DNA from: Deltaproteobacteria bacterium | GTDB taxonomy: Bacteria; Desulfobacterota_D; UBA1144; Nemesobacterales; Nemesobacteraceae | DNA length: 64,000 bases | Assembly: GCA_029262295.1 (NCBI GenBank) | Contig: JAJCZR010000068.1 | Coordinates: forward strand, 9,749 to 73,748 | Direction: 5' to 3' | Shown here: one piece after another, positions 2,726-30,477 of the stretch | Numbering within the stretch: position 1 is the first letter of the stretch | Layout: each line of letters starts with the position of its first letter | Position numbers and translations under genes: made by a program | Notes under the pieces: model-generated | The model's database searches: none | What the model was told of the DNA's origin: nothing | The model's input: only the letters and a program-made list of their open reading frames with translations

Positions 2726-2739
2726 ATCATAATCTCCTT

Positions 2740-5128: not shown

Positions 5129-5136
5129 TATTTGTT

Positions 5137-5262
5137 ATCTAAAATAAACAAAAATCCTTCCCCAGTTTTTGGCATCTTTTTTATATCTATGATATTTCAT
5201 GCGGGTGTCTCTTTGTTCAAGAAACCGCAAAACCTTTTTTTGAGTTGGACTCTTCCTTATTC
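5137..5262. repeat. Degenerate second copy (about 85% identity) of the last ~125 bp of the smr gene (6163-6292), with a frameshift; gene-3'-end remnant
   Basis: Direct comparison: tatctaaaataaacaaaaatccttccccagttttt(g/a)gcatctttttt... is shared by 5137-5262 and 6163-6292. The 6163-6292 copy encodes the Smr C-terminus (...YHRYKKDAKNWGRIFVYFR*). The 5137-5262 copy has a 1-nt deletion and an in-frame stop. Confidence 0.8.
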
Positions 5263-5496
5263 TATTGTAGGTGAAAATTCACAATATTCTGAAACAAGGC
5301 AGTGCTGAATTTATTTCAGCATTTAGTAAATGATTAACCATAATGTTATTCCGTGAAGCTCTTTCTTTGAAGATAAATGTTGAAAAGAAATTTTTCAATA
5401 CAGCCATTATTGATTTAAAGTTGCAATTGATTTATCTTTTCTTTCTATATACTAACAATTAAAAAAAATCATATAATTGTTTTCGGAGATATTTAA

Positions 5497-6111
5497 ATGT
5501 CCAATTTTCCTTCACCTTTTTACAGATGGCGTCCACATCCCTGGCATGGTCTTGATATAGGGCCAGATGCTCCCAGGATTATACATGCTTACATTGAGAT
5601 AACGCCGTTTGACTTTGTTAAGTATGAAGTAGATAAAGTTACCGGTTATCTTCGTGTTGACCGCCCGCAGCGTACATCATCACAACCGCCTACTCTTTAT
5701 GGTTTTATTCCCAGGACTTACTGTGGCAACAATGTTGGAAGCCTTTCACCTAATGCAAATAAGGGTGACAATGATCCGCTTGATATATGCGTTTTTAGTG
5801 AGAGGCCAATTAACCGCTCGGAAGTGATTTTAAATGCTAGAGTTGTTGGCGGACTGCTTGGAGTCGACGGTGGGGATGCAGATGATAAAATCGTTGCAGT
5901 GCTTGAGAATGATAATGTCTGGGGAGATATTAATGATATATCCGAGCTTCCTGAAGTTTTAGTAGAACGTTTAAGACATTATTTTAGTACCTACAAGCTA
6001 GTACCCGGCGAGGAGCCTCGCATGGTTGTAGAAGATTTTTACGGACGTGAACACGCGATGAAAGTTGTAGAGGCTGCAATTAGGGATTACGATGAAGTTT
6101 ATGGAGAGTAA
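5497..6111 (+). CDS. ppa: Inorganic pyrophosphatase (family I) with an internal insertion
   Basis: 204 aa. [39 protein letters not shown] and KIVAV match the soluble PPase active-site region. Confidence 0.8.
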
Positions 6112-6158
6112 TCTCTTTACCTTATATATTTTCTGAAAAGCGAAATATAATTTTTTAA

Positions 6159-6410
6159 TTATCTAAAATAAACAAAAATCCTTCCCCAGTTTTTAGCATC
6201 TTTTTTGTATCTATGATATTTTTTGCGGGTTTCTTTTTGCTCAAGAAATCGTAAAACCCTTTTTTTAAGCTGGCCGCTTCCCTTTCCACATATTATTTCA
6301 AGTTCATCTATTTTATTCTCTGATGCTTCATTTACATAGTTGCTAAGTTCTTTTTCGATAAGATTTCCTTTGTTGTAGATAGGGTGAAGGTCTAGTTTTA
6401 TCTTGCTCAT
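6159..6410 (-). CDS. Smr (small MutS-related) domain protein
   Basis: 83 aa. LDLHPIYN...LEIICGKGSGQLKKRV matches the Smr domain LDLHG...IIHGKG.G.L pattern. Confidence 0.65.
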   Translation of the reverse strand: MSKIKLDLHPIYNKGNLIEKELSNYVNEASENKIDELEIICGKGSGQLKKRVLRFLEQKETRKKYHRYKKDAKNWGRIFVYFR

Positions 6411-6455
6411 TGTTTTTAGATCCTAAAACAAGTTCATAATAACACGGAATCAAAA

Positions 6456-8165: not shown

Positions 8166-8180
8166 CTGAGGCTCCTAATT

Positions 8181-8735
8181 CTAATTAAAGCTAACCTGAG
8201 GAGCTGCCGATTCTTCAGGTGAGTCGAGCTCAAAATACTCTTTTTTGGAAAAACCAAACTTATTTGCAACAATATTACTCGGCACAGTTTCTATCTTTGT
8301 ATTGAGGTCTCTCACAACGGCGTTGTAATACCTTCTTGCCATCTGAATTTTATCTTCAATGTCTGAAAGATCATTTTGAAGATCAAGAAAGTTCTGGTTG
8401 GCTTTAAGGTCAGGATAACTTTCAGACAGAGCAAAAAGGCTTTTAAGGGCAGATTGCAAAAAGTTTTCAGTTTGTGCTTGTTCTTCCGGCCCGCTTGCCC
8501 CCATTGCAGAATTTCTTGCCTGTACTACTTTTTCAAAAGTTTCTTTTTCATGAGAGGCATAACCTTTAACGGTTTCCACAAGGTTGGGAATAAGATCGTA
8601 TCTTCTTTTGAGTTGCACATCCACATCCGACCACGCCTGCTCCGATCTATTTCTAAGGCTCACAAGTCCGTTGTAAATCGCAACAAGGAAAAGTGCTATA
8701 GCAACTATTACACCTAAAACAATTAGTGCTGACAT
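8181..8735 (-). CDS. lemA: LemA family protein
   Basis: 184 aa. N-terminal TM followed by YNGLVSLRNRSEQAWSDVDVQLKRRYDLIPNLVETVKGYASHEKETFEKVVQARN, the conserved LemA core. Confidence 0.85.
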   Translation of the reverse strand: MSALIVLGVIVAIALFLVAIYNGLVSLRNRSEQAWSDVDVQLKRRYDLIPNLVETVKGYASHEKETFEKVVQARNSAMGASGPEEQAQTENFLQSALKSLFALSESYPDLKANQNFLDLQNDLSDIEDKIQMARRYYNAVVRDLNTKIETVPSNIVANKFGFSKKEYFELDSPEESAAPQVSFN

Positions 8736-12200: not shown

Positions 12201-12208
12201 TTATTAAA

Positions 12209-13501: not shown

Positions 13502-13507
13502 TTAATT

Positions 13508-14293
13508 ATGATAAGAAGAGATATAGATGGGGGTTGGATACTTATTACCCAGGACGACCATGCAGTCCTTTCTTTTGATATTATGAAAAACTGGGGAAAT
13601 AGTAGGTTCGAGGAAATTATTCCAAATGAGCAGGTTTTAACTGCAATTAAAGAACATGATTGCGGTTGGAAAAAATGGGATAGCAGTTCCGTATTAAATA
13701 AGCAGAATAACTACCCTACCAATTTTATCGAGATGTACACTAACGATCAATATGTAATATGGAAAAACTCTTATGAAAGTCTGAGAGATGATTCAAGTTA
13801 CGCAGCATCACTTGTAGCTCTTCACTTCTCAAAGTTTAATAATAATACTCTTACTAAAAACCCTGATAATCGGACTGCAAAAATATTGAGGGATAAAATA
13901 AATAAATTTGTTCAAAGGAATCTTAAATTAAACTCAGATAATAAAGATAAAAATGGGTTTCTTCCAATTGATGTTAGGATAAATCTCAGGTTTTTGCAAA
14001 TAGGTGATATTGTTTCTCTTGCACTTTGCCATGGTTGGAGTTCAACTGAGATTGAAAATGTGCCGCTAAACTATCATGATGATAATGTGATTTTAAAACT
14101 GAGTTCGCAGGATGGTTTAAACTATGAAATAGACCCAAATCCTTTTCCTGAGAATAATCTAGAATTTAAAGTTAAAGGAAAAAAGCTTCTGAAAAAAGAG
14201 TTTAAGTCACAAGATGAGCTAGACATGGCTTTCAGTGATGCAACAGAACAAATTCTTTCGTTTTCAATTTGCAGCTGCCAGGAGGAAAGATAA
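13508..14293 (+). CDS. Hypothetical protein embedded in the glc operon (possibly DUF3891-like; assignment uncertain)
   Basis: 261 aa ORF tightly packed between glcE (7-nt gap) and glcF (0-nt gap). No recognisable catalytic motif. C-terminal CSC. Confidence 0.5.
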   Translation: MIRRDIDGGWILITQDDHAVLSFDIMKNWGNSRFEEIIPNEQVLTAIKEHDCGWKKWDSSSVLNKQNNYPTNFIEMYTNDQYVIWKNSYESLRDDSSYAASLVALHFSKFNNNTLTKNPDNRTAKILRDKINKFVQRNLKLNSDNKDKNGFLPIDVRINLRFLQIGDIVSLALCHGWSSTEIENVPLNYHDDNVILKLSSQDGLNYEIDPNPFPENNLEFKVKGKKLLKKEFKSQDELDMAFSDATEQILSFSICSCQEER

Positions 14294-15589
14294 ATACCTA
14301 CTTTTAAAGCTTTTGATGAAATAGATAAACCGGATAAAAAAATAATTGATGATTGCGTTCACTGCGGGTTTTGTCTGTCTGCATGTCCGACTTATCTTCA
14401 GACAGGAAATGAACTTGATTCCCCAAGGGGAAGAATTTATTTAATTAAGTCTGCAGCAGCCGGTGAAATAGATATGGACCTCTCACTTGTTAATCATCTT
14501 GATTTGTGCCTTGGTTGCCTTGCTTGTGAGACAGCATGTCCATCAGGGGTTAAATACGGAAGCCTTATTGAGACTGCAAGGGCACAGATAGAAAGAAGAT
14601 ATGAGAGGGGATGGTTCGATAAGGCTTTTAAATCTTTACTGTTTAGTTTGTTTCCTTACGCATCAAGACTAAAATTGATGCTACCCTTTTTCTACCTGTT
14701 AAATCTTTTGAAACTGAAAAGCGTAATAAAACCTGAGTTTTTATACAGAATAAATCCAAAGCTGGGAGCACTTTTTGATGTTCTTCCCGAAGTTAGCACC
14801 CCATTTGTAGAAAAACTTGGGGAATTAATTCCATCAAAGACAGAGAAAAAGTACAGGGTTGCAATGCTTACCGGATGTGTTCAAAGTGCGTTTTTTTCAA
14901 AAACTAACCAGGCGACTGTTAATGTATTAACAAGTAATGGGTGCGAAGTTGTAATCCCTAAAGGACAGGGTTGTTGTGGCGCACTTTCAATTCACTCAGG
15001 AAGGCTTAGTGAAGGTAAAGAGTTTGCAAGAAAGTTGATTGATACATTCACAAAACTTGATGTGGATGCAATTGTTGTTAACTCTGCAGGTTGCGGCTCA
15101 TCAATGAAAGAGTATGGATATATTTTTAAAAATGACCCAGCTTACAAAATAAAAGCAGAAAAGTTATCTCAAAAAACTAAAGATATAATGGAGTTTCTCT
15201 CAGAAATAGGGATTGAAAGTGAACTGCAACCTCTCGATTTAAAAATTACTTATCAGGATGCTTGTCATATTATTCATGGACAAAGAATAAAAAATGAGCC
15301 GCGTGAGATCCTCGAAAAAATTCCAGAACTTAAACTTATAGAAATGAAAAACTCTGATAGATGCTGCGGGAGCGCTGGAATTTATAATATTACCCAGCCG
15401 GATATGTCTCAAAAAATCCTGCATGAGAAAGTGGAAAATATAGAACAAACAGGTTCAGATTATCTTGTTGCCGGTAACCCGGGGTGTCTTTTGCAGATTA
15501 AAAAGGGTTTTACTAAAAACCAAAAAAGCATAAAAACTGCACATCCAGTTGAAATTCTCAACTGGTCAATCAAAGGCAAAATAAGCTAA
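14294..15589 (+). CDS. glcF: Glycolate oxidase iron-sulfur subunit GlcF; start codon non-canonical (AUA at 14294?) or the gene is disrupted
   Basis: The first 4Fe-4S motif CVHCGFCLSACPTY (14354-14395) and ELDSPRGRIYLIK lie upstream of the first ATG (14474). The second cluster CLGCLACETACPSG and the CCG domains follow. The frame is open back to the TAA of the upstream ORF. AGGAGG at 14280-14285 lies 8 nt before ATA at 14294. Confidence 0.75.
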   Translation: MPTFKAFDEIDKPDKKIIDDCVHCGFCLSACPTYLQTGNELDSPRGRIYLIKSAAAGEIDMDLSLVNHLDLCLGCLACETACPSGVKYGSLIETARAQIERRYERGWFDKAFKSLLFSLFPYASRLKLMLPFFYLLNLLKLKSVIKPEFLYRINPKLGALFDVLPEVSTPFVEKLGELIPSKTEKKYRVAMLTGCVQSAFFSKTNQATVNVLTSNGCEVVIPKGQGCCGALSIHSGRLSEGKEFARKLIDTFTKLDVDAIVVNSAGCGSSMKEYGYIFKNDPAYKIKAEKLSQKTKDIMEFLSEIGIESELQPLDLKITYQDACHIIHGQRIKNEPREILEKIPELKLIEMKNSDRCCGSAGIYNITQPDMSQKILHEKVENIEQTGSDYLVAGNPGCLLQIKKGFTKNQKSIKTAHPVEILNWSIKGKIS

Positions 15590-15593
15590 AGTT

Positions 15594-15620
15594 CCAACCC
15601 TAAATCTGACTTAGGGTTGG
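15594..15620. terminator. Perfect 10-bp inverted repeat (CCAACCCTAA-N7-TTAGGGTTGG) between convergent glcF and the HU gene; candidate bidirectional terminator hairpin
   Basis: Seen directly in the sequence between the glcF stop (15589) and the HU stop (15635). Confidence 0.45.
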
Positions 15621-15634
15621 AAAGTATTACAAAA

Positions 15635-15925
15635 TTAACCTAAAATTGCGTCTTTACAGGCTTTTGCTACTCTGAATTTCACGACTTTTTTAGCTGGAAT
15701 CTGAATTACTTCACCTGTGGCAGGGTTTCTTCCAGTTCTTGCTTTTCTGTCGCTTAAAACTAGTTTACCAATTCCAGGTAATGTGAATTGACCTTTTTTC
15801 TTTGCTTCACCACAAGCAATTTCTGCTATTTCATCGAGCAGATCATTTGCGGCTTTTTTTGTAAGACCTGTTCTTTCAGCAATTTCACCTGAAAGAGCTG
15901 ATTTAGTCATGGGTTTATTATCCAT
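15635..15925 (-). CDS. hup: HU/IHF family nucleoid-associated DNA-binding protein
   Basis: 96 aa. MTKSALSGEIAERTGLTKKAANDLLDEI...FTLPGIGKLVLSDRKARTGRNPATGEVIQIPAKKVVKFRVAKA matches the HU fold and arm. Confidence 0.85.
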   Translation of the reverse strand: MDNKPMTKSALSGEIAERTGLTKKAANDLLDEIAEIACGEAKKKGQFTLPGIGKLVLSDRKARTGRNPATGEVIQIPAKKVVKFRVAKACKDAILG

Positions 15926-16106
15926 TACTCCTCCTATTAATAAAGTAATAAAAAATCTATACTAATGTAAATATTGAGAAAAATCAACTTCAAGCTTTGT
16001 AGGCTTTTTGAAAATGATTTTTAAACTTATCAAATATCGATAAACTATTATCCATATCTATTTTATATTGAATTTTAAACTTTTTCCAGCCAATTGGTGT
16101 AATAGC

Positions 16107-17234
16107 ATGAAATTAACAAAAGACACGAAAAACAAAAAGTGGTTTGTATTCTTTTTAATATTTATTGGATTCATTGTATTTCTCGGATTTTTGTATCTAA
16201 GGCTTTTATCTGTGAGGTCTGAAGCTGCAAAAAGTTTTAACAATGATTCTGCTAAACCTGTAAAAGTAATTCCCCTGGAAAAAACAGAAGGGTGGCTTTA
16301 TAGAGAAGTTTTGGGAAGAGTGGAAGGGAATCAACAGATAGACATTAAAACAAATGTGAGTGGCTGGGTTGAGGGCAAAAATTTAAAAAGAGGAAACCCG
16401 GTTAATAAAGATGAGGTAATACTTACACTTTATGATGACAGGACCGAAGCTTCTCTTACAGAAGCTCAGTTTAATCTTAAATCTGCTAAGGCAAAGCTCA
16501 AAGAAAGCAAAAGAAAATACAATCAGAATAAACTATTGCTCGAAAAGGGTATTGTTTCAAAAGATACTGTGGATGAGAGTGAAAACCTTGTAAGTATTGA
16601 TAACGCTAATGTCAGGTCACTTGAAGCCTCACTTAAAAAGATGCAGTTTGATTTTGATAAACTTAATGTTCGCTCTCCTATTTCAGGACAGGTTGTTGAA
16701 GTGCTTCCGGATGTGGGCCAGGAGGTAATAGAAGGAGAGGTTGTTGCTAAAGTTGTAAATCTTTCGTCTATTCATATTATTGTCGGTGTTGATGCCTCTC
16801 TCGCAAGATCTATAGATACGAACTCGCCAGTCGAACTTACGCTCAAGCTTAATGGTGATATTGAAAAAACCACTGGTAGGGTAGTGGGCGTGAGTAAGGA
16901 TTTTGCTGCTAACTCAGGGATATATGAAGTTGAAATAAAGATTGATGATAAAGATGTAAATTGGTGGCCAGGTGAGATTGTGTCTGTAAAAATACCTACA
17001 AAGAAGTTTCGTGATGTTGTAAGAATTCCAAGATCTGCAGTGTTGTCAGATAGCAGCGAGATATTTATTTTTGTAGTGAATGAAGGACTTTCTTTAAAAG
17101 TACCAATAAATGTAACCTGGATTGATGATAAATATGGTTTTACTAATGCAGATAATATTCCACTTAACTCACAAATAATTACCGAAGGTGCTTCCGGGCT
17201 TACATCCGGCCAGCAGGTAAAAATTCTCAATTAA
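16107..17234 (+). CDS. RND efflux periplasmic adaptor (membrane fusion protein, HlyD family)
   Basis: N-terminal TM, coiled-coil (EASLTEAQFNLKSAKAKLKESKRKYNQNKLLLEKGIVSKDTVDE), lipoyl/beta-barrel motifs (VRSPISGQVVEV). Directly upstream of the RND pump. The ATG at 16107 is preferred over 16068. Confidence 0.8.
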   Translation: MKLTKDTKNKKWFVFFLIFIGFIVFLGFLYLRLLSVRSEAAKSFNNDSAKPVKVIPLEKTEGWLYREVLGRVEGNQQIDIKTNVSGWVEGKNLKRGNPVNKDEVILTLYDDRTEASLTEAQFNLKSAKAKLKESKRKYNQNKLLLEKGIVSKDTVDESENLVSIDNANVRSLEASLKKMQFDFDKLNVRSPISGQVVEVLPDVGQEVIEGEVVAKVVNLSSIHIIVGVDASLARSIDTNSPVELTLKLNGDIEKTTGRVVGVSKDFAANSGIYEVEIKIDDKDVNWWPGEIVSVKIPTKKFRDVVRIPRSAVLSDSSEIFIFVVNEGLSLKVPINVTWIDDKYGFTNADNIPLNSQIITEGASGLTSGQQVKILN

Positions 17235-17240
17235 TAGCTA

Positions 17241-20200
17241 ATGCATATTGCTGATTTTTCTGTAAAAAATTCAGTCCTTGTAAACCTTCTAATGGGAGCA
17301 ATTCTTGTTATTGGGTTTGTTTTTGCGCTTGTGCTTCCACTTGAACTCTTCCCCTCAATTAATCTTGAAATTGTAACTGTTAAAACAGTGTTCCCGGGTG
17401 CATCTGCTGAAGATATAGAGCAGCTAATTACTATCCCGATTGAAGAAGAGATAAAGAACATCTCGGGAATAAAGGTTCTAAAATCAACTTCTTCCGAAGG
17501 CTTATCCTCGGTGACAGCTGAGCTGTATACAGGTGAGGATATAAAAAAGATATCCCAGGATATTGATTCAAATATTTCAAGAATAAAAGATAAACTTCCG
17601 GGTGATTCTGAAGAACCTATTGTTGAAGAAGTTGATGCCAATTTCCCTTTAATAAACGTGGCTATTTCAGGTGATGTTCCCCGAGCAGTTCTTCGAGATA
17701 ATGCCCTTCGCCTTGAAGATGAACTTCTACTTGTAAGCGGCGTTGACAATATTATTCCATCCGGGCTTGAAGAACCTGTATTTTGGGTCTATCTCGATTA
17801 TGCAAAGATGCGCCAGTTTGGTCTTAATGTGGATCAGGTCTCTTCTGCAATCAGTCAGAAAAACCTTGATCTTCCAGGCGGAGGTTTTAAACAGGGCGAT
17901 GTAGAATTGATAGTGAGAACTAAAGGAAAAGTAAAATCTATTGAAGATCTTTTAGATATTCCCGTAAATAGTGATCAGATGGGGAGGCAGGCTTTTTTAA
18001 GGGATATTGCCACGATAGAGCTTGGAGAAGAAAAGGCCTCTTCTTTATCAAGGGTAAACGGACTTTCTGCTATAACTTTCTGGGTAAACAAGCAAAAAAA
18101 TGTTGATGCAATTGATACAGTAAAGAAGATTGAAGAACTGACAAAAGAGTTTGAAAAAACGCTTCCGGATTCAATAGAGATTTATCTTACAAACGACGAA
18201 TCCTACTGGGTAAAAAAACGTTTTGAGACAATGCTAAAAAGCGGTGCTGCAGGGTTGATACTGGTGCTTATCTTCCTTGGACTTTTTCTAAATAAAAAGG
18301 CTGCACTTATTGCCGCTCTTGGTATACCGGTTTCCTTTTTGGGCGCTTTTATTCTTATGCAGTTAAATGGGGTCACAATAAATCTTCTCTCGATGTTCGG
18401 GCTTATTATGGTGCTTGGGATTGTTGTGGATGACTCAATTATAGTTGTAGAAAATGTGGAAAGATATATAGCTCAGGGTATGAAGCCGAGAGCTGCAGCT
18501 ATAAAAGGCACAAAGGAAGTTGCACTGCCTGTTTTGGCAACAGTGCTTACAAATATTGCGGCATTTATACCTCTTTTATTTGCAACTGGTCTTGTGGGTG
18601 AATTTTTATCTATAATTCCCACTGTAGCCATCTTTGCACTTCTTTTTTCTCTTGTAGAGGCTCTTCTAATAATGCCTGCTCATTGTGCTGAATGGCTTAG
18701 CCCGAGAAAGGCAATTAAGAAAAGGTATACCTGGTTTCATAAAATCAGATCTTATTACTTAAAGGGTTTGGTTTTTGTACTTGGAAACAGATATGTAGTT
18801 GTTCCTTGTTTCTTTATAATTTTTTTCATCACCATATATATTTTCTCGCAAATTCCAAATGTAATGTTTTATCAGCATGACACTTCTGAGCTTCGAATAA
18901 GGGTTGAAAATCCTGCACAATCTAATCTTGAGTATACGGCTTCATCTGTTAAGCAGGTTGAAGACATTATAAAAAAGAATGTGCCTGAGCATGTGCTTAA
19001 AAATATAGTATCTCTTGTGGGACTCGATCTTACAGGCCAGGCAACTGCTACAGGTGATCATCTTGCAACAATCATTGTCCAGTATGAAGATTTTGAAAAA
19101 AGAAAAGAAAATGCAATTGAGCTTAGTAATCTTGCCCGTGATGATACGCTTGCCAATGTAGCCGGTCCAAAGCAGGTGGATTACATAATTGAGGCAGGGC
19201 TTCCCACAGGTAAGCCGGTTGAAGTGAGAATTCAGGGGAAAAATCTTAATGTTCTAAAAGAAATATCTTATAAGACCCAGGAGTATTTAGAAAAGCAAAA
19301 AGGTGTTTCAGGAATAAGCGATGATCTTCTCTGGGGAAAACCGGAAGTGCGGGTGGAAGTTGATCCCAGAAAAGCTGCAATTTTTGGTCTCGATACAACA
19401 AAAATAGCGCAGGAAGTGAGGACACTTGTGGATGGGCTTACAGTTGCACAGACTCGTATTGGAAAAGAAGAAGCTGATATTAATCTTAAGTACCGCACTG
19501 GTGATGTAAATTTTGTTTCTCTTTTAGAATCTCATCAGATGCAAACTTCTTCAAATGGTCTGGTTTCCCTTGGTGCAGTTGCAAATATTGTGAATGCACC
19601 CAGCATTCTCGATATAAAAAGATATGATTCACAAAGAGCTGCGACTGTAAAAGCTGAAGTTGACCAGAAAATTACAACTTCTGTGGAAGTAAATAAAAAG
19701 TTAAAAGAGTATTTAAACGAATTGATAAAAAGCTATAGTGGATACAGTTTTAATTTTGGTGGTGAAGCAGAGGAATATAAGCAGACAATTGGAGATATTA
19801 TGAGAGCTGCCCTTGCTGCAATTATTCTTATATATTTAATTCTTGCCAGTATTTTAAGATCATATTTTCAGCCTTTTATCATTATGAGCATATTGCCTTT
19901 TACACTTATCGGTGTAATTACAGGAATATTAATTAGAGGCGAACCAATAACTCTTCCGGCAATTATTGGGACAGTGGCCCTTCTTGGAATTGTGGTGAAT
20001 GACAGCCTTGTTTTAATGGATTTTATAAATAAACGTGTAAAAACAATGAGAAGCAAAGTAATGGCAGTGGCTTTTTCAGCCAAACACCGCTTCAGACCAA
20101 TTATTCTTACCACTCTAACGACTTTTGGAGGCCTCTCTTCGCTTATGTTTGTTTACAGAGGTGAATCATCGTTTCTTGCTCCAATGGCCATCTCACTCGG

Positions 20201-20327
20201 CTTTGGGCTTCTATTTGCCACAGTGATTCTTTTATATTTAATCCCAGCCCTTTATTTGATATTGGATGATATAATTGGGTTTGTAAAAAGAAAGATTGGA
20301 AAATATAGAGTTCAATTTACGTCTTGA
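17241..20327 (+). CDS. RND family efflux transporter permease (AcrB/CzcA superfamily)
   Basis: 1028 aa, 12-TM architecture with two large periplasmic loops. Typical motifs (GIVVDDSIIVVENVERY; GIVVNDSLVLMDFIN). Confidence 0.85.
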   Translation: MHIADFSVKNSVLVNLLMGAILVIGFVFALVLPLELFPSINLEIVTVKTVFPGASAEDIEQLITIPIEEEIKNISGIKVLKSTSSEGLSSVTAELYTGEDIKKISQDIDSNISRIKDKLPGDSEEPIVEEVDANFPLINVAISGDVPRAVLRDNALRLEDELLLVSGVDNIIPSGLEEPVFWVYLDYAKMRQFGLNVDQVSSAISQKNLDLPGGGFKQGDVELIVRTKGKVKSIEDLLDIPVNSDQMGRQAFLRDIATIELGEEKASSLSRVNGLSAITFWVNKQKNVDAIDTVKKIEELTKEFEKTLPDSIEIYLTNDESYWVKKRFETMLKSGAAGLILVLIFLGLFLNKKAALIAALGIPVSFLGAFILMQLNGVTINLLSMFGLIMVLGIVVDDSIIVVENVERYIAQGMKPRAAAIKGTKEVALPVLATVLTNIAAFIPLLFATGLVGEFLSIIPTVAIFALLFSLVEALLIMPAHCAEWLSPRKAIKKRYTWFHKIRSYYLKGLVFVLGNRYVVVPCFFIIFFITIYIFSQIPNVMFYQHDTSELRIRVENPAQSNLEYTASSVKQVEDIIKKNVPEHVLKNIVSLVGLDLTGQATATGDHLATIIVQYEDFEKRKENAIELSNLARDDTLANVAGPKQVDYIIEAGLPTGKPVEVRIQGKNLNVLKEISYKTQEYLEKQKGVSGISDDLLWGKPEVRVEVDPRKAAIFGLDTTKIAQEVRTLVDGLTVAQTRIGKEEADINLKYRTGDVNFVSLLESHQMQTSSNGLVSLGAVANIVNAPSILDIKRYDSQRAATVKAEVDQKITTSVEVNKKLKEYLNELIKSYSGYSFNFGGEAEEYKQTIGDIMRAALAAIILIYLILASILRSYFQPFIIMSILPFTLIGVITGILIRGEPITLPAIIGTVALLGIVVNDSLVLMDFINKRVKTMRSKVMAVAFSAKHRFRPIILTTLTTFGGLSSLMFVYRGESSFLAPMAISLGFGLLFATVILLYLIPALYLILDDIIGFVKRKIGKYRVQFTS

Positions 20328-20348
20328 AATAAGCATAAAATAAAAAAT

Positions 20349-20834
20349 TTGATATTTGTTATTTTGTTATATTTTTTATTTTTTAATGAATGTGTAGCTA
20401 ATAACAGTTCTGATTTGGAGTCTATAGAAAATAACCCCAAAATTATTAATGATATTCCAAGTGACATGTATTGGTTTTCATTTTTTATGGGTTTACTAAA
20501 AGATGTAAAAGAGAATGAGAAGTTTGTATATGGAAAAGTTTTCGCTTACCATGGGTATGCTGATTTCAAGATTAACAAAAATGATATAGATAATTTGGAA
20601 TCTAAAACACAAGGTGCAATACGTACTATAAAACACAATATCTCCATTATTAAATACTCATCTGATTATAGTCAACAAAAAAAAAGTGCAATACAAAGAC
20701 TATATGAAATAACTGGAAGTAACTTTGATTCTTATGAAAAGTGGGACGATTGGTTCATTAATAATCAGAAAAATCTAGTCTGGTCAAATAAGCTTGATCA
20801 ATTGGTAATAAAAATAGTAATGAATAAATTGTAA
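20349..20834 (+). CDS. Hypothetical secreted protein in a very AT-rich segment
   Basis: 161 aa ORF with a hydrophobic N-terminus. No recognisable domain. Local composition is much more AT-rich than the flanking genes. Confidence 0.35.
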   Translation: MIFVILLYFLFFNECVANNSSDLESIENNPKIINDIPSDMYWFSFFMGLLKDVKENEKFVYGKVFAYHGYADFKINKNDIDNLESKTQGAIRTIKHNISIIKYSSDYSQQKKSAIQRLYEITGSNFDSYEKWDDWFINNQKNLVWSNKLDQLVIKIVMNKL

Positions 20835-20914
20835 ATTATATATTTTGTCTTTGTACCTTTAAAGCTTACTCAGATTCTCACACCTCTATCTGTTTGTTTC
20901 AACAACTATTTCAA

Positions 20915-20953
20915 TTGACAATAAACTTATCTGTATTACATTTGTATTACATA
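20915..20953 (+). promoter_or_regulatory. Candidate promoter (TTGACA-N16-TACATT) with tandem TGTATTACAT direct repeats (likely antitoxin operator) upstream of the RHH/PIN pair
   Basis: TTGACA at 20915-20920. TGTATTACAT at 20933-20942 and again at 20944-20953, just upstream of the GGGAG SD and the ATG at 20969. Confidence 0.4.
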
Positions 20954-20968
20954 TCTGGGAGTTTAAAA

Positions 20969-21229
20969 ATGAGTACTAAAACTGTGCGTTTAGATAATGA
21001 AACTGAAGAGGCTTTGAGAGAAATTAGAAAGCAAACAGGGCTTTCCATATCTGAAGTTCTCAAAGAGGGAATTCTTGTACTTAAAAAAGAAGTTGATGAT
21101 AAGAATAGGCAAAGCCCCTTTGATGTTTATAAAAGCCTCGATTTAGGTGAAGGTGGTTATTCCATAGCACCATCAACAGATACTCGAAAGGGAGTAAGGG
21201 CTGCAATTAAAAAGAAGTTAAATAAATGA
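20969..21229 (+). CDS. Ribbon-helix-helix (CopG/VapB-like) antitoxin
   Basis: About 87 aa from the ATG at 20969. MSTKTVRLDNETEEALREIRKQTGLSISEVLKEGI is a typical RHH N-terminus. Overlaps the downstream PIN gene by 4 nt (ATGA). Confidence 0.7.
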   Translation: MSTKTVRLDNETEEALREIRKQTGLSISEVLKEGILVLKKEVDDKNRQSPFDVYKSLDLGEGGYSIAPSTDTRKGVRAAIKKKLNK

Positions 21230-21639
21230 TCCTTGTAGATACGGGCCCACTCATTGCTCTTTTTGATCCAAAAGACAAAATGCATGAAAGTTGCAAAGAA
21301 ATACTCAAAACTATTGAAGAAAAAATTTGCACTACCATCCCTGTCCTCACTGAAGCTTTTCATATACTAACTCCGGAAAGCATAAGTTCAGACAGATTAA
21401 AAGATTTTATAGTAAAAGGCGGATTATCAATCCTCTTTATGGATGAGAAAGTAATAGAAAGATGCTTTGAATTAATGGAAAAGTATAAAGATCATCCAAT
21501 GGACCTTGCTGATGCTTCATTAATAGCTTCAGCCGAAAAGCTAGAAACCAGAAAAATATTTACAATAGATAGAAATGATTTTGAAACATATCGAATACAA
21601 AAGGGGCATAAATATCTTTCGCCAGAGATTCTAAGTTAA
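21226..21639 (+). CDS. vapC: PIN-domain toxin VapC
   Basis: 137 aa. MILVDTGPLIALF (Asp5), TEAF, DLADAS and TIDRNDF supply the PIN acidic residues. Confidence 0.8.
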   Translation: MILVDTGPLIALFDPKDKMHESCKEILKTIEEKICTTIPVLTEAFHILTPESISSDRLKDFIVKGGLSILFMDEKVIERCFELMEKYKDHPMDLADASLIASAEKLETRKIFTIDRNDFETYRIQKGHKYLSPEILS

Positions 21640-21695
21640 AACTTGCTCCAACTCTCGCAGCCTTTTCTTATTATCTCCACTCTTATGTTCTACCT
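21636..21695. repeat. Degenerate copy (about 85% identity, ~60 bp) of the 3' end of the cysteine desulfurase gene whose intact copy is at 22412-22471
   Basis: aaaacttgctccaactctcgcagccttttcttattatctccac versus aaaacttactcaaactctcgcagctttccctgattatttccac. Reverse translation of the remnant gives VEIIRKGCESWSKF*, compared with the genuine C-terminus VEIIRESCESLSKF*. Confidence 0.75.
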
Positions 21696-22364
21696 TTTAA
21701 AACTGAATTTTACAGCACCTCGTTCGGGATCATTTTCAGTATCGTATTCAAATTCAAGATTTACATTCAATATATCAGCCGGAATTCTTTTAAAGTATAT
21801 AAAACCTTTTACAGTTGAGCCGGGATAAACCACACCGGGGAAAAGTGCTTCAGAATAAACTTCACTCACATTTTCAGCCTGTCCGTACGCTTGAGGATAA
21901 TCGTAGGGATATGGATCATCATAATAGTAATGAAAACGACTTCTGAAAGGACTGTGGTATCGATGATGACTTCTGTAATAACCGCCATGATAATGGCCAA
22001 CGCCAATTCCAATTGAAATTCGTGGGAAAAATCTTGGGCGTGAACTCTCTTTCACAATCTCAGCAGCAATATTGGGGCTTAAAAGATTGTATTGATTATT
22101 TAATTCGTCGATCAGCACAATATCATTGGAATTGAAAGTAATCTCGTTTTTCGATTGATTCTCAATCTCTACATAAAAGGTTGTAAGGTATTTAGAAACC
22201 TTGTAATCACCAATCCCTGAAGATGGAGTGACTTTTATTTCCACACCTTCATCAGTCTTAAATTTCTGAAACGGTATAAACGGGGCTGCTGTTTTCTGCT
22301 TGTATGCACAACCTGAGATCGCAAATATTAAAATTAGGACTATTGGAAATACTTTTTTTGTCAT
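21690..22364 (-). CDS. Lipoprotein with DUF4352-like beta domain and His/Tyr-rich C-terminal region
   Basis: Lipobox MTKKVFPIVLILIFAISGC. C-terminal GVGHYHGGYYRSHHRYHSPFRSRFHYYYDDPYPYDYP. Confidence 0.6.
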   Translation of the reverse strand: MTKKVFPIVLILIFAISGCAYKQKTAAPFIPFQKFKTDEGVEIKVTPSSGIGDYKVSKYLTTFYVEIENQSKNEITFNSNDIVLIDELNNQYNLLSPNIAAEIVKESSRPRFFPRISIGIGVGHYHGGYYRSHHRYHSPFRSRFHYYYDDPYPYDYPQAYGQAENVSEVYSEALFPGVVYPGSTVKGFIYFKRIPADILNVNLEFEYDTENDPERGAVKFSFKR

Positions 22365-22413
22365 ACAAAATATTATAATGACAAAGTGCTTGAACTGTAC
22401 TTTTTTTGCAACT

Positions 22414-23580
22414 TTAAAACTTACTCAAACTCTCGCAGCTTTCCCTGATTATTTCCACCGCTCTGTTAACTTCTTCAAAAGTGTTTTCAGGGCTGAAGCT
22501 GAATCTGATGCTTGAATATGCTTCTTTTTCACTTAATCCCATTGCCATTAAGACGTATGAAGGAGTGCTGTCAAAATTAGTGCAGGCTGAGCTTTGAGAG
22601 CACCTGATTCCTCTTTTATCAAGGAGTTGAAGAAGTCTTCTCCCATCAAGATCATCAAATTTGATATTGGTTGTATTACATATTCTGTTTTTTGGACATC
22701 CGTTTACTTTTGTGCCTGGGATAAAATCAAGAAGCATTGCTTCAAATCGGTCGCGAATCTCTTTCATCTTCATTTTTAGCTTTCTAAGGTTTTCATGCCT
22801 GATCTCGGAGGCTTTTCCGATACCAACAATTCCGGGGAGGTTCTCTGTGCCGGGCCTAAAGCCTTCTTCCTGAAAACCACCAAATAAAATTGGGTTTACA
22901 AGAAACCTGTCTTTTGCATAAAGCACTCCACAACCTTGGGGAGCATTGTATTTATGTCCTGTGAAAGAAAGAAAATCGACTGATAGTTTATCAATATCAA
23001 TCTCCATTTTGCCTACAGCCTGAGCTGCATCAGTGTGGAAAATTACACCTTTTTCCATACAGAGTTTTGATATCGATTCTAAATCCTGAATAACTCCTGT
23101 TTCGTTATTTACCCACTGTACAGAAACTAAATCCACTTTTTTTTGATCCAATATCTTTTCAAGATCATCTATAATCACAAAACCGTTTTCATCTACACCA
23201 AGCATTTCCACTTCGACATTGTTTATCTTGAGATAGCTGCACATTTTTAATATAGAAGAATGTTCAACCATTGTTGTGACAACTTTTTTAGAGCCATTTC
23301 CATTTTTTGTGCAGGAATAAAAAGCCATATTGTTGGATTCAGTGCCCGAGCTAGTAAAAATAATGTGATCTGGACAACAGCCAATGAGGCTTCCTGTGCA
23401 CTCTCGAGACTTTTTAAGATGTTCTCTTGCCCTTTCTCCACCTGAGTGGGCACTTGATGGGTTTCCAAATTCTTTGCTTAATACTTTTATAACTGCTTCG
23501 CGCACTTCTTTCGAAGGCATGGTTGTGGCATTATTATCAAAATAGATTTCTGCAGAACTTTGTTTACACCCCATACTCAT
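22414..23580 (-). CDS. Cysteine desulfurase, NifS/IscS family (class V aminotransferase)
   Basis: 388 aa. PLP-lysine motif SFTGHKYNAPQGCGVLYAK. Active-site Cys loop SSACTNFDSTPSYVLMAMG. Confidence 0.85.
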   Translation of the reverse strand: MSMGCKQSSAEIYFDNNATTMPSKEVREAVIKVLSKEFGNPSSAHSGGERAREHLKKSRECTGSLIGCCPDHIIFTSSGTESNNMAFYSCTKNGNGSKKVVTTMVEHSSILKMCSYLKINNVEVEMLGVDENGFVIIDDLEKILDQKKVDLVSVQWVNNETGVIQDLESISKLCMEKGVIFHTDAAQAVGKMEIDIDKLSVDFLSFTGHKYNAPQGCGVLYAKDRFLVNPILFGGFQEEGFRPGTENLPGIVGIGKASEIRHENLRKLKMKMKEIRDRFEAMLLDFIPGTKVNGCPKNRICNTTNIKFDDLDGRRLLQLLDKRGIRCSQSSACTNFDSTPSYVLMAMGLSEKEAYSSIRFSFSPENTFEEVNRAVEIIRESCESLSKF

Positions 23581-26390: not shown

Positions 26391-27098
26391 GTGAGTATAT
26401 TTAGGCTTATGGATAATACTTTTGATGATGGATTCATATTGATTGCGCACAGAGGTGCGAGTTCTTACAAACCCGAAAATACAATGCTTTCCTTTCAGAA
26501 GGCAATTGAACTTGGAGCAAAAATAATTGAGTTTGATGTCAGAAAAAGCCTGGATGGCCATCTTGTAGTTATGCACGACAGTAAAGTTAATAGAACGACT
26601 AATGGGGATGGTAAGGTCAATAATATAAACCTGGCTGAACTAAATAACCTCGATGCGGGAAATGGTGAGAAAATACCAACTGTTGAAGATGTTCTTATTT
26701 TGTTTAAAGGCAAGGGTAAATTTGTTATAGAACTTAAAGAAGAGAATACGGAAAAGCAGATTCTGGACATGATATATAAATATGATCTTGCAAATGATGT
26801 GATTTTGGTTTCTTTTAAAAAAAGGGTTTTAAAAAGACTGCGGGCCCTTGATGGCAATATTACGACTGGCTTAATAACACTCACTGGTATTGGTTGTGTA
26901 AGGACTGCGGTTGAACTAGGATGTAGGGCAGTTGCAACACATGTTTATCTTGCAACAAAAAACAAGGTGCAAAATGCACATGAAAACGGGCTTCTTTTTT
27001 TCTGCTGGACTACAGATGACAAGAGAAAATGTTTGGAACTAAAAAGAAAAGGTGTAGATGGTGTAATTACCAATAAGCCTGACCTTTTGGAAAGATAA
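26391..27098 (+). CDS. Glycerophosphodiester phosphodiesterase (GDPD) family protein
   Basis: 235 aa. LIAHRGASSYKPENTMLSFQKAIELGAKIIEFDVRKSLDGHLVVMHD carries the GDPD catalytic His/Arg/Glu/Asp motif. Confidence 0.8.
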   Translation: MSIFRLMDNTFDDGFILIAHRGASSYKPENTMLSFQKAIELGAKIIEFDVRKSLDGHLVVMHDSKVNRTTNGDGKVNNINLAELNNLDAGNGEKIPTVEDVLILFKGKGKFVIELKEENTEKQILDMIYKYDLANDVILVSFKKRVLKRLRALDGNITTGLITLTGIGCVRTAVELGCRAVATHVYLATKNKVQNAHENGLLFFCWTTDDKRKCLELKRKGVDGVITNKPDLLER

Positions 27099-28246
27099 TG
27101 GAAAAAATATATCTCGATTACAACGCCACAACACCTCTTGATCCCCGGGTCTTTGATGCAATGATTCCATACTTAAAAACCAATTATGGTAATCCATCAA
27201 GTATTCACTCTTATGGAAATATTGCTAAAGCAGCACTTGATGAATCAAGAGAGCGAGTTGCAGAATTTATTGGTTCCAAGCCACGAGAAATAGTATTTAC
27301 TACTGGTGGAAGTGAAAGCAACAACTTTGCTATTAAAGGCGTGGCATATTCTTTGAAAGAGAAGGGCAACCATCTGATTACTGTTGAAACCGAACATGCA
27401 TCCTGTCTTGAGGTATTCAGATTCTTAGAAAAACAAGGTTTTGAGGTTACCTATCTTCCGGTTGATAGCTTTGGTTTAATTGATTTAGATGAGCTGGCTG
27501 ATTCTGTTACGGATAAAACAATATTAATATCCTGTATGTATGTAAACAATGAGACAGGTGTAATAAACCCAATTTCGAAAGTTGGTGAAATTGCAAGAGA
27601 AAAAGGTGTGCTCTTTCACTCTGATATGGTGCAGGCAGCAGGAAAGATGGAGGTTGATCTTTCAGAGTTGTCTGTTGATTTAGCATCTTTTTCTTCACAT
27701 AAGGTTTATGGTCCTAAAGGAGTTGGTGCATTATATATAAAAAAAGGTGTCAACCTGGATTCTCTAATTCATGGTGGTGGACAGGAGCGTGGAAGAAGAT
27801 CAGGCACTGAAAATGTTGCAGGAATATTTGGATTTGGAAATGCCTGTGAGTTTACAAAAAAGGAATTTAAAGAAGAACAAGACAGGCTATTAGGTCTGAG
27901 GGAACTTCTTTCTGAAAATATATCAAAGGTAGAAGGAACTTACCTGAATGGCCATCCTGACCTCAGAGTTTCAAACACTTTAAATATTGGATTTGAAGAT
28001 ATTGAGGGTGAATCCCTTGTTATGAACCTTGATCTTGAAGGAATCGCAGTTTCAACTGGTTCTGCCTGCTCTGAAGGAAATGTTGATCCCTCACATGTAC
28101 TTTTGGCTATGGGTCTTCAAAAGAAAGAGGCAATCTCGTCATTGAGGATCAGTTTTGGAAGGTTTACAAAGAAAGAGGAAATCGAAAAAATTATACATGC
28201 TCTACCAAAAGTGGTTGAAAGAATAAGAGGTATAAAAGAGTTTTAG
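27098..28246 (+). CDS. Cysteine desulfurase, NifS/IscS family (second, divergent paralog)
   Basis: 382 aa. SFSSHKVYGPKGVGALYIKKG. Active-site loop STGSACSEGNVDPSHVLLAMG. Confidence 0.85.
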   Translation: MEKIYLDYNATTPLDPRVFDAMIPYLKTNYGNPSSIHSYGNIAKAALDESRERVAEFIGSKPREIVFTTGGSESNNFAIKGVAYSLKEKGNHLITVETEHASCLEVFRFLEKQGFEVTYLPVDSFGLIDLDELADSVTDKTILISCMYVNNETGVINPISKVGEIAREKGVLFHSDMVQAAGKMEVDLSELSVDLASFSSHKVYGPKGVGALYIKKGVNLDSLIHGGGQERGRRSGTENVAGIFGFGNACEFTKKEFKEEQDRLLGLRELLSENISKVEGTYLNGHPDLRVSNTLNIGFEDIEGESLVMNLDLEGIAVSTGSACSEGNVDPSHVLLAMGLQKKEAISSLRISFGRFTKKEEIEKIIHALPKVVERIRGIKEF

Positions 28247-28259
28247 TTTGGAAAAAACC

Positions 28260-29003
28260 TCAGCGGCAAATAAGTGTGTTTTTACTATCAATATGAAAGT
28301 GATTTGCGTGAAGTGAATTATATTCCGGGCCAAGAACTGTTCCAAAGAATTTGCAAGCTCCATCTTTAAATTGAAATAAAAAATCAGATTTTTCCGCCTC
28401 ATTCTCATTATCCCAGTGTTTTAAAACTGAGACTGTTCTTCCATCACTCAGCTTTAAACCTGCAATATCTAAAGCGGAAGCAGTTGCGTGCTCACTCTTT
28501 TTGCCAACAACGCTATTGTTGATATTACGGCAAGCAAAGCTTCCATAGTGATTGATTTTATCTACTGATTTTCCAAATACTTCTTTTGCCAGTGGTTGTA
28601 GGCTTTGTTGTTCAAACATAAGCCATGCAACAGTAAGCGGGCAGCTCAAAATAAACTCTCTATTGAATTTTACTCCCGTGTTTTTTATTTTAATAACATT
28701 GGTTAAAGGGCATCCTTCAACAGGGGTGTAATCTCGAAGGGATTTGTAGTTAATGTCTTTTGGATAAACTTCAGACAGTATTTGAAGGCACTCATCCGGA
28801 TTTTGCTTTAGGTTATTTAACTTCCATTTTGTAATAAGGTTTATCGGCTGGTTAATTGTGAGAGGTGCCCAGGGATTCCAGTGAGGAGGTATTTTAGACC
28901 AGTTGTGTTTTATGATAAGTGTGAGGAATGAAAAAGTGGCTATAAACAAAAGCATAATAGTTAATTTCCAGATCTTCCCTTTTTTATTCATCTGCAAAGT
29001 CAT
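28260..29003 (-). CDS. Extensin-like C-terminal domain protein (membrane-anchored)
   Basis: 247 aa. N-terminal TM. LSCPLTVAW ... SFACRNINNSVVGKKSEHATASALDIAGL ... NHFHID matches the extensin-like_C (COG3921) pattern. Confidence 0.55.
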   Translation of the reverse strand: MTLQMNKKGKIWKLTIMLLFIATFSFLTLIIKHNWSKIPPHWNPWAPLTINQPINLITKWKLNNLKQNPDECLQILSEVYPKDINYKSLRDYTPVEGCPLTNVIKIKNTGVKFNREFILSCPLTVAWLMFEQQSLQPLAKEVFGKSVDKINHYGSFACRNINNSVVGKKSEHATASALDIAGLKLSDGRTVSVLKHWDNENEAEKSDFLFQFKDGACKFFGTVLGPEYNSLHANHFHIDSKNTLICR

Positions 29004-29159: not shown

Positions 29160-29405
29160 TTACAACCACTCCCACTCATTTTCATCAAACTTATTTTGAA
29201 TGTAAACATTAGTTTCTTTTCCCATTTTTTTAAACTTTTTATTCCATCCATCTCTAGGGTTATTGCTCTTTGAAATTACTACCTTTTTATTTACGACCTC
29301 AATATCCAGTTGATTTTCAATTTCGCATTGCTTGATTATAGAATTTGGAATTATAATCCCTTTTGAGTTACCAATATCTATAAGTTTAATTTTCATTTTA
29401 TACAC
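29160..29405 (-). CDS. MazE/AbrB/SpoVT-type DNA-binding protein (orphan antitoxin-like)
   Basis: 81 aa. KLIDIGNSKGIIIPNSIIKQCEIENQLDIEVVNKKVVI resembles the MazE swapped-hairpin fold. The C-terminus FDENEWEWL resembles the MazE tail. No mazF-like partner adjacent. Confidence 0.55.
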   Translation of the reverse strand: MYKMKIKLIDIGNSKGIIIPNSIIKQCEIENQLDIEVVNKKVVISKSNNPRDGWNKKFKKMGKETNVYIQNKFDENEWEWL

Positions 29406-29436
29406 TTTTATTGTTTAACTTGTCTTGTCAATAATT

Positions 29437-30477
29437 TTATGGATAAAGAGGTAGGCCATTAATCCCAGTTGTTTCAGGTAAATCAAGCATAATGTTCATA
29501 TTTTGGATTGCCTGGCCTGATGCGCCTTTAACAAGATTATCAATAGCTGAGATGATAATTGCGGTTTTATTCTCAGGGTTTGATTTAACACCTATATCAC
29601 AGAAATTAGAGCCTCGAACATAAGATGTATTGGGATACTTTCCTTCAGGATAAATCCTGATAAAATGAGAGTTTTTATAAAAATCCTCATAAACTTTAAT
29701 TAGATCGGAAGTTGTCTGCTTTTCTTTCAGATTTACATATATAGTTGATAAAATTCCCCTATCTATCGGAATAAGATGAGGGGTGAAAGTCACGTTTACA
29801 TCAAAACCAGTATAATCCGAAAGCTGCTGCTCAATTTCAGGGCAATGACGGTGCTCTCCTACCTTATATGCTTTAAATCCTTCGTTAACTTCAGAAAAAT
29901 GAGTATCAAGAGATGGCGAACGGCCTGCTCCCGTTACTCCTGATTTTGAATCAATAATAATATTGTCTTCATTAATAACCCCGCTTTTTAGTAAAGGAGC
30001 GAGAGGCAGAATTGCTGATGTGGGATAACAGCCCGGGTTTGCCACAAGTTTTGCAGTGGCAATTTGCTCTTTATTGAGTTCAGATATTCCATATACAGCA
30101 TTATCAAGCAGTTCTGTACAAGGATGATCTCCATACCAATCTTTATAATTTTTAGCATTAAGCCTGAAATCAGCGCCAAGATCGATAATTTTTATATCCC
30201 TTTTATAGATTTTATTAATGATTTCAGCGGAAGCACCGTGAGGTAGTGCTGCAAAAACAACATCAGTGTCTTCTGGGATATTTGATGGAGCAAGTTGTTC
30301 AAGTTTTAAATTAATAGAATTATTCAAATGAGGAAAAACCTCAGAAATTTCCTTATTTGCATGTTTTGATGCGGTAATATGGTTTATAATTGTGTTTGGA
30401 TGTTGATGAAGTAACCTTATCAGTTCACTGCCGGTGTAGCCACTCGCACCTAGTATCGATACCTTGTATTTATGCAT
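29437..30477 (-). CDS. argC: N-acetyl-gamma-glutamyl-phosphate reductase
   Basis: 346 aa. Rossmann N-terminus ILGASGYTGSELIRLL. Catalytic Cys motif ANPGCYPTS. Confidence 0.9.
   Translation of the reverse strand: MHKYKVSILGASGYTGSELIRLLHQHPNTIINHITASKHANKEISEVFPHLNNSINLKLEQLAPSNIPEDTDVVFAALPHGASAEIINKIYKRDIKIIDLGADFRLNAKNYKDWYGDHPCTELLDNAVYGISELNKEQIATAKLVANPGCYPTSAILPLAPLLKSGVINEDNIIIDSKSGVTGAGRSPSLDTHFSEVNEGFKAYKVGEHRHCPEIEQQLSDYTGFDVNVTFTPHLIPIDRGILSTIYVNLKEKQTTSDLIKVYEDFYKNSHFIRIYPEGKYPNTSYVRGSNFCDIGVKSNPENKTAIIISAIDNLVKGASGQAIQNMNIMLDLPETTGINGLPLYP

Follow-up and report, generated by a model that had tools for sequence, protein, structure and literature searches.

Duplicated gene ends border small accessory blocks at two variable loci of a low-GC, Dadabacteria-like lineage

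Introduction

Hotspots that lack mobile elements have been proposed to diversify by recombination at the core genes flanking them (Oliveira et al., 2017; PMC5635113). In tycheposon islands, partial tRNA copies separate stacked elements, the older copies being displaced outward by later arrivals (bioRxiv 10.1101/2020.12.28.424599). Many hotspots of gene transfer carry no recognizable mobile element, and the route by which DNA enters them is disputed. Here we analyse a stretch of 64,000 nucleotides (hereafter the window) from an assembly of Deltaproteobacteria bacterium (GCA_029262295.1, contig JAJCZR010000068.1, positions 9,749 to 73,748), in which accessory genes lie between core genes at two places: the gap between a nifS-like cysteine desulfurase gene (nifS) and an RND efflux pump gene, and the gap between the Smr-domain gene smr and msrB. 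At both places the 3' end of a core gene, nifS or smr, recurs at the boundaries of the accessory blocks. The putative junction scars preserved here, together with alternative states of the same two sites in relatives, provide a concrete and testable case. They allow one to ask if short duplicates of gene ends suffice, in a compact genome, for genes to be gained, lost and relocated, or if an unseen recombinase is at work.

Both gaps resemble the hotspots without mobile elements in that core genes lie on either side, the accessory content differs between relatives and changes rapidly, no integrase, transposase or other mobility gene was found and, at the nifS–RND gap, identity of the flanks to one relative (L081) rises inward. 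They are unlike those hotspots in carrying partial 3'-end duplicates at the block boundaries, which a simple double crossover in the flanks does not make. The comparison covers a handful of genomes.

As in islands built by tandem accretion, such as tycheposons, repeats of the target's 3' end separate the blocks, the outer copies are more decayed, the target itself is intact, and the cargo includes defence and toxin–antitoxin genes. Unlike in tycheposons, the targets are protein-coding (nifS-like and smr), the blocks measure 0.7–1.8 kb and the remnants vary in length; moreover, whereas a tyrosine recombinase is the hallmark of tycheposons, neither the window nor the examined fillings of relatives yielded an integrase, excisionase or replication gene, and the 64-kb window contains no tRNA or tmRNA. 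Tandem accretion is further exemplified by arrays of integrative and conjugative elements and cis-mobilizable elements at protein-gene 3' ends. Two hallmarks of integrative elements are present here, namely flanking direct repeats (the nifS tail three times and the smr tail twice in the window, and the nifS tail twice in the related contig L083) and variable occupancy, with four fillings of the nifS–RND gap and three at the smr 3' end (ppa, AbiE, and a Panacea antitoxin with a type IIG enzyme). As to a recombinase of their own, neither the blocks of the window nor the examined fillings yielded a gene of the tyrosine, serine or DDE type.

Chromosomal integron arrays likewise consist of small units, often a single gene or operon, commonly carry toxin–antitoxin cargo and vary between close relatives; unlike them, the present gaps show no attC hairpin, core sites, IntI or common cassette orientation, and the repeat is the end of a coding gene. 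Homology-facilitated illegitimate recombination during uptake of foreign DNA is known from naturally transformable bacteria. Applied to the gaps, it would have a conserved gene (nifS, smr or RND) anchor one end while the other was joined arbitrarily, and it predicts variable remnants and altered far-side gene ends, as seen here. They depart from it in that no donor was identified, and this model alone leaves unexplained why the same few bases at the nifS end are targeted.

Results

The 3' end of nifS is present three times

The window contains three directly oriented copies of the final 54 nt of nifS: the genuine gene end (copy C) and two further copies, B and A, with starts spaced by 777 and 778 nt (Table 1). 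Over the last 45 nt of the gene, matches number 45/45 for copy C, 38/45 for copy B and 34/45 for copy A, so that identity drops the further a copy lies from the gene. Among unrelated sites in the window the best reaches 26/45, none of 100 shuffles gave a match comparable to copy B, and the chance expectation for copy A is 1.6e-6. An earlier note on this stretch had described a duplicate of the desulfurase end bracketing the lipoprotein gene. That copy is indeed present, and the picture is widened by the third copy: B and C flank the lipoprotein gene, while A and B flank vapBC. The order nifS–lipoprotein gene–copy B–vapC recurs in an independent assembly (L001, from SRR15505519).

The terminal ~13 nt of nifS (GAGTAAGTTTTAA-like) are retained in all remnants, including those found in relatives. 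Copies C and A and the genuine tail of the related contig L083 are also alike for ~6–10 nt past the stop codon, and copy A has the derived GAGAATCT in common with the remnant in a second relative, L081. The stop codon of vapC overlaps the opposite-strand stop codon of copy B, and a possible AACA microhomology is present where the lipoprotein gene meets copy B.

Two other sources for the copies were considered and rejected. The tail of a paralogous aminotransferase gene (27098–28246) gave alignment scores of 19–25, against 58–64 for nifS. A widespread intergenic repeat family, which the earlier note had named as the finding that would undermine its interpretation, does not account for them either: the window contains three copies only, none occurs in 103 other loci or downstream of nifS in 55 Dadabacteria loci outside the lineage, and the copies are specific to nifS and smr. 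Folding of the three nifS copies as DNA on both strands revealed no structure (minimum free energy, MFE, 0 to −5.9 kcal/mol; z −0.9 to +2.1), a scan of the window against Rfam matched no family, and no terminator-like site was present at any nifS-tail copy.

The units of 777 and 778 nt that the copies delimit (20859–22413) hold unrelated genes on opposite strands. Beyond the tail, their in-register identity is 226/717, compared with 195.5 ± 11.5 for circular shifts, 5 of 707 of which reach it; no residual homology between the units could be aligned by BLAST.

The nifS–RND gap is filled differently in relatives

The relatives available are short metagenomic contigs, and the informative ones were found through protein-cluster searches. 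Matches to NifS in species-representative genomes and JGI metagenomes came from metagenome-assembled genomes of Dadabacteria and Thermodesulfobacteriota, at no more than 66% identity, and were too distant to be of use in looking for empty sites; in these matches the upstream DUF6573–nifS pair is kept and the downstream side is not conserved.

Read from nifS towards RND, the filling of the window comprises the lipoprotein gene, copy B, vapBC, copy A and a small open reading frame (ORF), ORF161. In L081 (NifS 94% identical) the lipoprotein gene is followed by a decayed tail remnant and then by higB and a gene for a helix-turn-helix antitoxin. In L083 (83%) nifS is followed by two methyltransferase genes, a tail copy (93% identity over 28 nt, ~43 nt in all) and 480 nt of non-coding DNA before RND. 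L106, whose NifS falls in the same 90% cluster as that of the window, has the two methyltransferase genes of L083, 187 nt, a 16-nt remnant of the nifS end, a conserved 49-nt spacer and the lipoprotein gene, with RND only 5 nt past it. In L082 (75%) the first methyltransferase gene lies directly after nifS, and the contig then ends. L106 is collinear with window positions 14–36 kb save for the hotspot and the segment 28247–29436; vapBC, ORF161 and the tail copy after the lipoprotein gene are all missing from it.

The products of the lipoprotein genes of L081 and L106 are 91% and 82% identical to that of the window. The earlier note had named relatives carrying this gene without flanking repeats as a finding that would tell against its interpretation, and this situation was found in part: since the L106 gene lacks a downstream tail copy and abuts RND, it looks like an old neighbour of nifS rather than a cassette, and is probably just that. 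As a methyltransferase gene follows nifS in L082, L083 and L106, the window and L081 would most simply have lost the pair by recombination between tail and remnant; the methyltransferase pair is probably ancestral in the clade.

Breakpoints of homology in the window fall at tail edges, at positions 21683, 22411 and 22425, the first being the inner edge of copy B, where homology to L081 stops. No more than 3 consecutive nt are common to the end of the genuine tail and the remnant in L106. On the far side of the gap, the C-termini of the RND pumps diverge after LILDD, so that the last 10–19 codons are lineage-specific, the genes of the window, L106 and L083 all differing there in length and in stop codon; the homology of the window gene ends at 20299 relative to L106 and at 20270 relative to L083. 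With a different C-terminus in each of the three lineages, imprecise events have evidently occurred on the far side of the gap, and the sequences suggest that insertions and deletions at the hotspot repeatedly rewrote the 3' end of the RND gene (20270–20327). Identity to L081 climbs towards the hotspot, from 76% in ubiA to 87–90% in nifS and the lipoprotein gene (one genome pair), a rise that fits recombination at the flanking genes and proves nothing.

A 34-nt motif (CCAATATNCCAAGCCTGACCC...) is present in non-coding parts of the hotspot in L081 (5711–5744) and L083 (2789–2821), with 88% identity, and is missing from the window.

The smr tail is duplicated around ppa

At the second hotspot, positions 5135–5241 and 6159–6265 are 91% identical over 107 nt, and the similarity extends to ~125 nt at ~90%. 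This bears out the earlier note, which had seen the same signature around ppa. In 10 contigs with a 95%-identical Smr, AbiEii and AbiEi genes occupy the smr–msrB gap in place of ppa, and the AbiE-carrying contig L086 shows only a weak smr-tail match (score 44; shuffles averaged 24 and reached 50). Another relative carries beside smr a gene without assigned function, a gene for a Panacea-domain antitoxin and one for a type IIG restriction-modification enzyme. In L097 (83%-identical Smr), smr lies directly after MFP–RND pump genes on the same strand (L097 865–4178), which show 66% nucleotide identity to window positions 16968–20307. L097 thus adjoins the flanks of both window hotspots, and these junctions are therefore also rearrangement breakpoints.

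The housekeeping gene ppa occupies a different locus in each of three relatives and, in the window, lies inside the tail-bracketed block. A 94% relative has it flanked by alaS and a sigma-factor gene, and 92% and 80% relatives have it in two other contexts (L099 10001–10615, L103 130–747 and L102 4700–5314, with neighbourhoods across these three of alaS/sigma factor, DUF3943 and VTT/amino-acid permease). At the nucleotide level, the window and the 94% relative are homologous here over nothing more than the ppa ORF and flanks of 12 and 19 nt.

At its very start (3–36), contig L103 repeats with 85% identity the segment 740–773, made up of the final ~9 nt of ppa and the next 25 nt downstream, which suggests a tandem ppa copy or the remnant of one.

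Mobility genes and further duplicated tails

Comparison of 59 window ORFs with Pfam brought up no family linked to mobility, whether integrase, transposase or other. Those fillings examined in L081, L083, L106, L086 and L096 likewise contain no integrase or transposase, either on record or by Pfam, and several of their small ORFs are without any Pfam match; among the contents of relatives' fillings are HigBA, AbiE, methyltransferases, the Panacea antitoxin and the type IIG enzyme. A phage or satellite origin was set aside: viral contigs searched with the tail patterns, the lipoprotein and VapC gave no relatives and one chance match inside a phage gene.

When the tail of each window ORF was compared with the downstream 6 kb, only those of nifS and smr proved to be duplicated. 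The same scan of 119 kb from close relatives returned the nifS tail of L083 only, and in ~730 kb of other Dadabacteria loci it found none, save unrelated repeat arrays in L017 and L030. L017 (OY729416.1), a more distant relative, contains dense families of ~30–100-nt repeats on both sides of nifS (~2000–8400 and 11100–19000), unrelated to the nifS tail.

Discussion

On our best reading, the nifS–RND and smr–msrB gaps are flexible hotspots between convergent core genes of a low-GC, Dadabacteria-like lineage, in which small accessory genes are gained, lost and swapped. The repeats are derived specifically from the ends of nifS and smr, relatives differ at both hotspots, and tail copies stand at block boundaries in two lineages. 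The earlier note had gone on to propose an unrecognized mechanism of integration at gene ends. Relatives do carry different genes at both junctions, and the duplicated ends do mark sites that DNA has entered and left, but a 3'-end duplicate beside an insert is the classical attL/attR signature, and this signature alone therefore demands no unrecognized mechanism.

Our tentative preference, at somewhat less than an even chance, is that host recombination explains the turnover. The tail copies (16–54 nt of nifS, ~125 nt of smr) would then be junction scars. Incoming DNA would enter at the end of the core gene and bring a replacement copy of that end, the gene remaining intact and the old end being pushed outward; repeated events would pile up scars, of which the distal ones would be more decayed. 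The direct repeats and the flanking core genes could then serve as substrate for the host's own recombination machinery; blocks might be deleted by loop-out or traded with related lineages, and one-sided joins, part homologous and part illegitimate, might form. Cargo moved in such a way would need no recombinase of its own. Host recombination is favoured because the blocks are tiny, there is little spare DNA, no recombinase gene is present in the window or the examined fillings, the remnants vary in length (54, 43, ~16 and 125 nt) and the RND end is remodelled, a combination that is also what makes this case unusual. The variable remnants and the lineage-specific RND C-termini are signs of imprecise, non-site-specific events. 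From these comparisons we infer both the order of events and that host recombination, rather than a site-specific enzyme encoded elsewhere, was responsible.

Several points weigh against this preference. No donor molecule, empty site or circular intermediate was seen. Only four relatives are informative at nifS, all of them short metagenomic contigs, and the direction of gain and loss was taken from percent identity rather than from a tree. The terminal ~13 nt common to all remnants are exactly what a site-specific core predicts. The remnant in L083 is still 93% identical even though the methyltransferase block looks old, which needs gene conversion or a separate event. Host recombination on 16–54 nt at 80–90% identity is inefficient, and the rise in identity towards the hotspot could reflect gene-specific constraint. 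Finally, the window covers 64 kb of a contig of at least 124 kb, and an integrase may lie elsewhere in the genome.

The last of these points leads to the chief rival, in which a recombinase encoded elsewhere integrates DNA site-specifically, using as att core the last ~16 nt of nifS and a few bases past the stop codon. The blocks would then be integrase-less elements mobilized in trans, or stripped-down larger islands, accreted in tandem. Variable DNA flanked by direct repeats of a gene 3' end is the standard attL/attR signature, the same terminal segment is kept in every remnant, different cargo occurs at the same point in different lineages, and copies C, A and the genuine L083 tail are alike for a short way past the stop codon. 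The partial tRNA copies that separate stacked tycheposons offer an analogue, as do cis-mobilizable elements integrating at the 3' ends of streptococcal protein genes. We nevertheless consider this reading possible rather than probable. Besides the missing integrase in the window and examined fillings, the cargo genes lie so close to the repeats that hardly any spare DNA remains to accommodate arm sites or decayed integrase genes. Remnants range from 16 to 54 nt, the two tail segments of L106 have no common run beyond 3 nt, and no common core is evident in the nifS and smr tails. Precise recombination, moreover, would not cause the RND C-termini to differ between lineages.

Duplication in place, by some novel insertion process that cuts with a long stagger and fills in, would create a target-site duplication of 50–125 bp; selection would then maintain the gene copy and leave the distal one to decay. 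The copies do lie next to each other and in register, and polarization of the smr pair with an outgroup places all three second-position (amino-acid-changing) differences on the remnant and at least two third-position differences on the genuine copy. The bias towards codon position 3 (7/10 differences in the smr pair) does not separate the models (P ~0.02 against a uniform distribution, ~0.09 against duplication in place), and the codon-position and outgroup data together fit an imported orthologous tail and duplication in place with decay alike. Transposase, terminal inverted repeats and element ends are all missing, the blocks have no common ends, and we know of no transposon with target duplications of 50–125 bp. 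Different cargo bounded by the same tail and remnants of 16 nt would also go unexplained, and we regard this route as very unlikely. More improbable still is an integron-like cassette array, or an integrase-less attC cluster, with the tail copies acting as attC. Its attractions are the small units (777–1802 nt), cargo rich in toxin–antitoxin modules (vapBC, higBA) as in chromosomal integrons, and array content that varies between close relatives. We rejected it as the tail copies show no attC-like folding, their MFE being no better than that of shuffles; in addition, no RYYYAAC or GTTRRRY core sites were seen on inspection of the repeat ends, the window has no IntI gene, a housekeeping gene supplies the repeat from its coding end, the cargo genes point in both directions and vapBC is preceded by a promoter-like site of its own. 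Equally hard to credit is that the repeats are kept for a function of their own, as terminators, RNA-processing or regulatory sites, or that they are chance matches or assembly artefacts. Copies do lie at the 3' ends of convergent genes, where terminators are expected, but they show no stable structure, terminator-like site or Rfam match, decay grows with distance from the gene, and copy A has an in-frame stop. Chance is opposed by an expectation of at most 1.6e-6, and artefact both by the independent assembly and by the divergence of the copies, which at 63–91% identity are too different for collapsed or duplicated identical repeats.

Host recombination thus remains the explanation to which we lean, and the observations do not establish a new mechanism. 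A broader idea, which we think unlikely, is that short 3'-terminal segments of core genes in this lineage act as portable recombination sites for the insertion, excision, exchange and relocation of single genes or operons, through an unrecognized enzyme in trans or host recombination alone. If true, the system would be integron-like in outcome without attC hairpins, IntI or a cassette-borne recombinase, and its cargo would include toxin–antitoxin pairs, methyltransferases, defence genes and the housekeeping gene ppa. The apparent relocation of ppa suggests that the process is not confined to typical accessory genes.

Genes of the hotspots and neighbouring accessory patches

All ORF positions given in the earlier note were confirmed, and the features of both hotspots are collected in Table 1. 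VapC is a PIN-domain toxin, as had been proposed (50.6 bits against a Pfam cut-off of 23.6), and the ATGA shared with vapB (21226–21229) was verified. For the predicted ribbon-helix-helix (RHH) antitoxin, the overlapping 86-aa ORF is present; the domain assignment is less firm, with scores just short of the curated Pfam cut-offs (20.1 bits against 20.5 for RHH_1, 25.6 against 27 for DUF6290) and no NCBIfam match. The noted TTGACA promoter-like site with two direct repeats was located upstream of vapB, TGTATTACAT occurring at 20932–20941 and 20943–20952. The two repeats are a presumed operator, and the promoter role is presumed likewise; promoter-like sites in the region are no more numerous than expected from shuffles. 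The His/Tyr-rich lipoprotein gene was found as described, with both its lipobox and its His/Tyr stretch. The nifS-like product matches TIGR03402 with E 2.5e-119, yet remains under the cut-off of that model.

ORF161 had been taken for an orphan without homology. A HMMER search of 1.8 billion representatives contradicts this by revealing distant homologues: 81 representative clusters reach E ≤ 1e-3 and 13 reach E ≤ 1e-10, and in them the homologous domain of ~120 aa is single or in tandem; no Pfam or NCBIfam family matched. The AT-rich patch reported earlier shrinks to ~20250–21000, where GC is 0.24–0.28, as vapB, vapC and the lipoprotein gene (GC 0.33–0.36) are near the window mean of 0.357.

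Table 1. Positions of the duplicated tails and of the genes at the two hotspots (window coordinates)
Feature	Position	Strand	Description
smr 3'-end remnant	5135..5258	−	directly after msrB; reads ...VLRFLEQRDTRMKYHRYKKDAKNWGRIFVYFR*
ppa-bearing block	5259..6158	+	ppa ORF 5497–6111, between two smr-tail copies
smr (Smr-domain) gene	6159..6410	−	core flank of second hotspot; PF01713, E 2.6e-14; genuine tail 6159–6283
RND efflux pump gene	17241..20327	+	conserved core flank; ORF; ACR_tran on record for orthologues in L083, L097 and L106
ORF161	20349..20834	+	small protein with hydrophobic N-terminus; GC 0.26; accessory; missing from L106, L083 and L081
nifS-tail copy A	20859..20912	−	most decayed; in-frame stop; reads VVETNR*RCENLSKL*
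vapB promoter-like site TTGACA-16-TACATT	20915..20942 within 20915..20952	+	overlapped by two direct TGTATTACAT repeats
vapB-like antitoxin gene	20969..21229	+	86 aa; RHH_1/DUF6290 scores below cut-off; ATGA overlap with vapC
vapC PIN-domain toxin gene	21226..21639	+	PF01850, E 3.7e-13
nifS-tail copy B	21636..21689	−	reads NIRVEIIRKGCESWSKF*; 80% identity to genuine tail over 54 nt
lipoprotein gene	21690..22364	−	224 aa; lipobox AISGC; His/Tyr-rich stretch; weak DUF4352 match
nifS-tail copy C (genuine)	22414..22467	−	last 54 nt of nifS gene
nifS-like cysteine desulfurase gene	22414..23580	−	conserved core flank; Aminotran_5, E 8e-72

Two further patches were noted elsewhere in the window. The segment 28247–29436 is an insertion relative to L106, between the convergent aminotransferase gene (27098–28246) and asd (29437–30477). 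It holds an Extensin-like_C ORF (28260–29003, minus strand) and, as read from the sequence, a small MazE/AbrB-like ORF (~29185–29421, minus strand). As no duplicate of the asd tail accompanies it, insertions in this genome do not leave a tail scar in every case. The second patch, at 51024–52078 after xseA, carries a TumE toxin ORF (51244–51630; PF20126, E 5e-23), with an overlapping 76-aa ORF upstream and, downstream, an 89-aa ORF that is helix-turn-helix-like by sequence.

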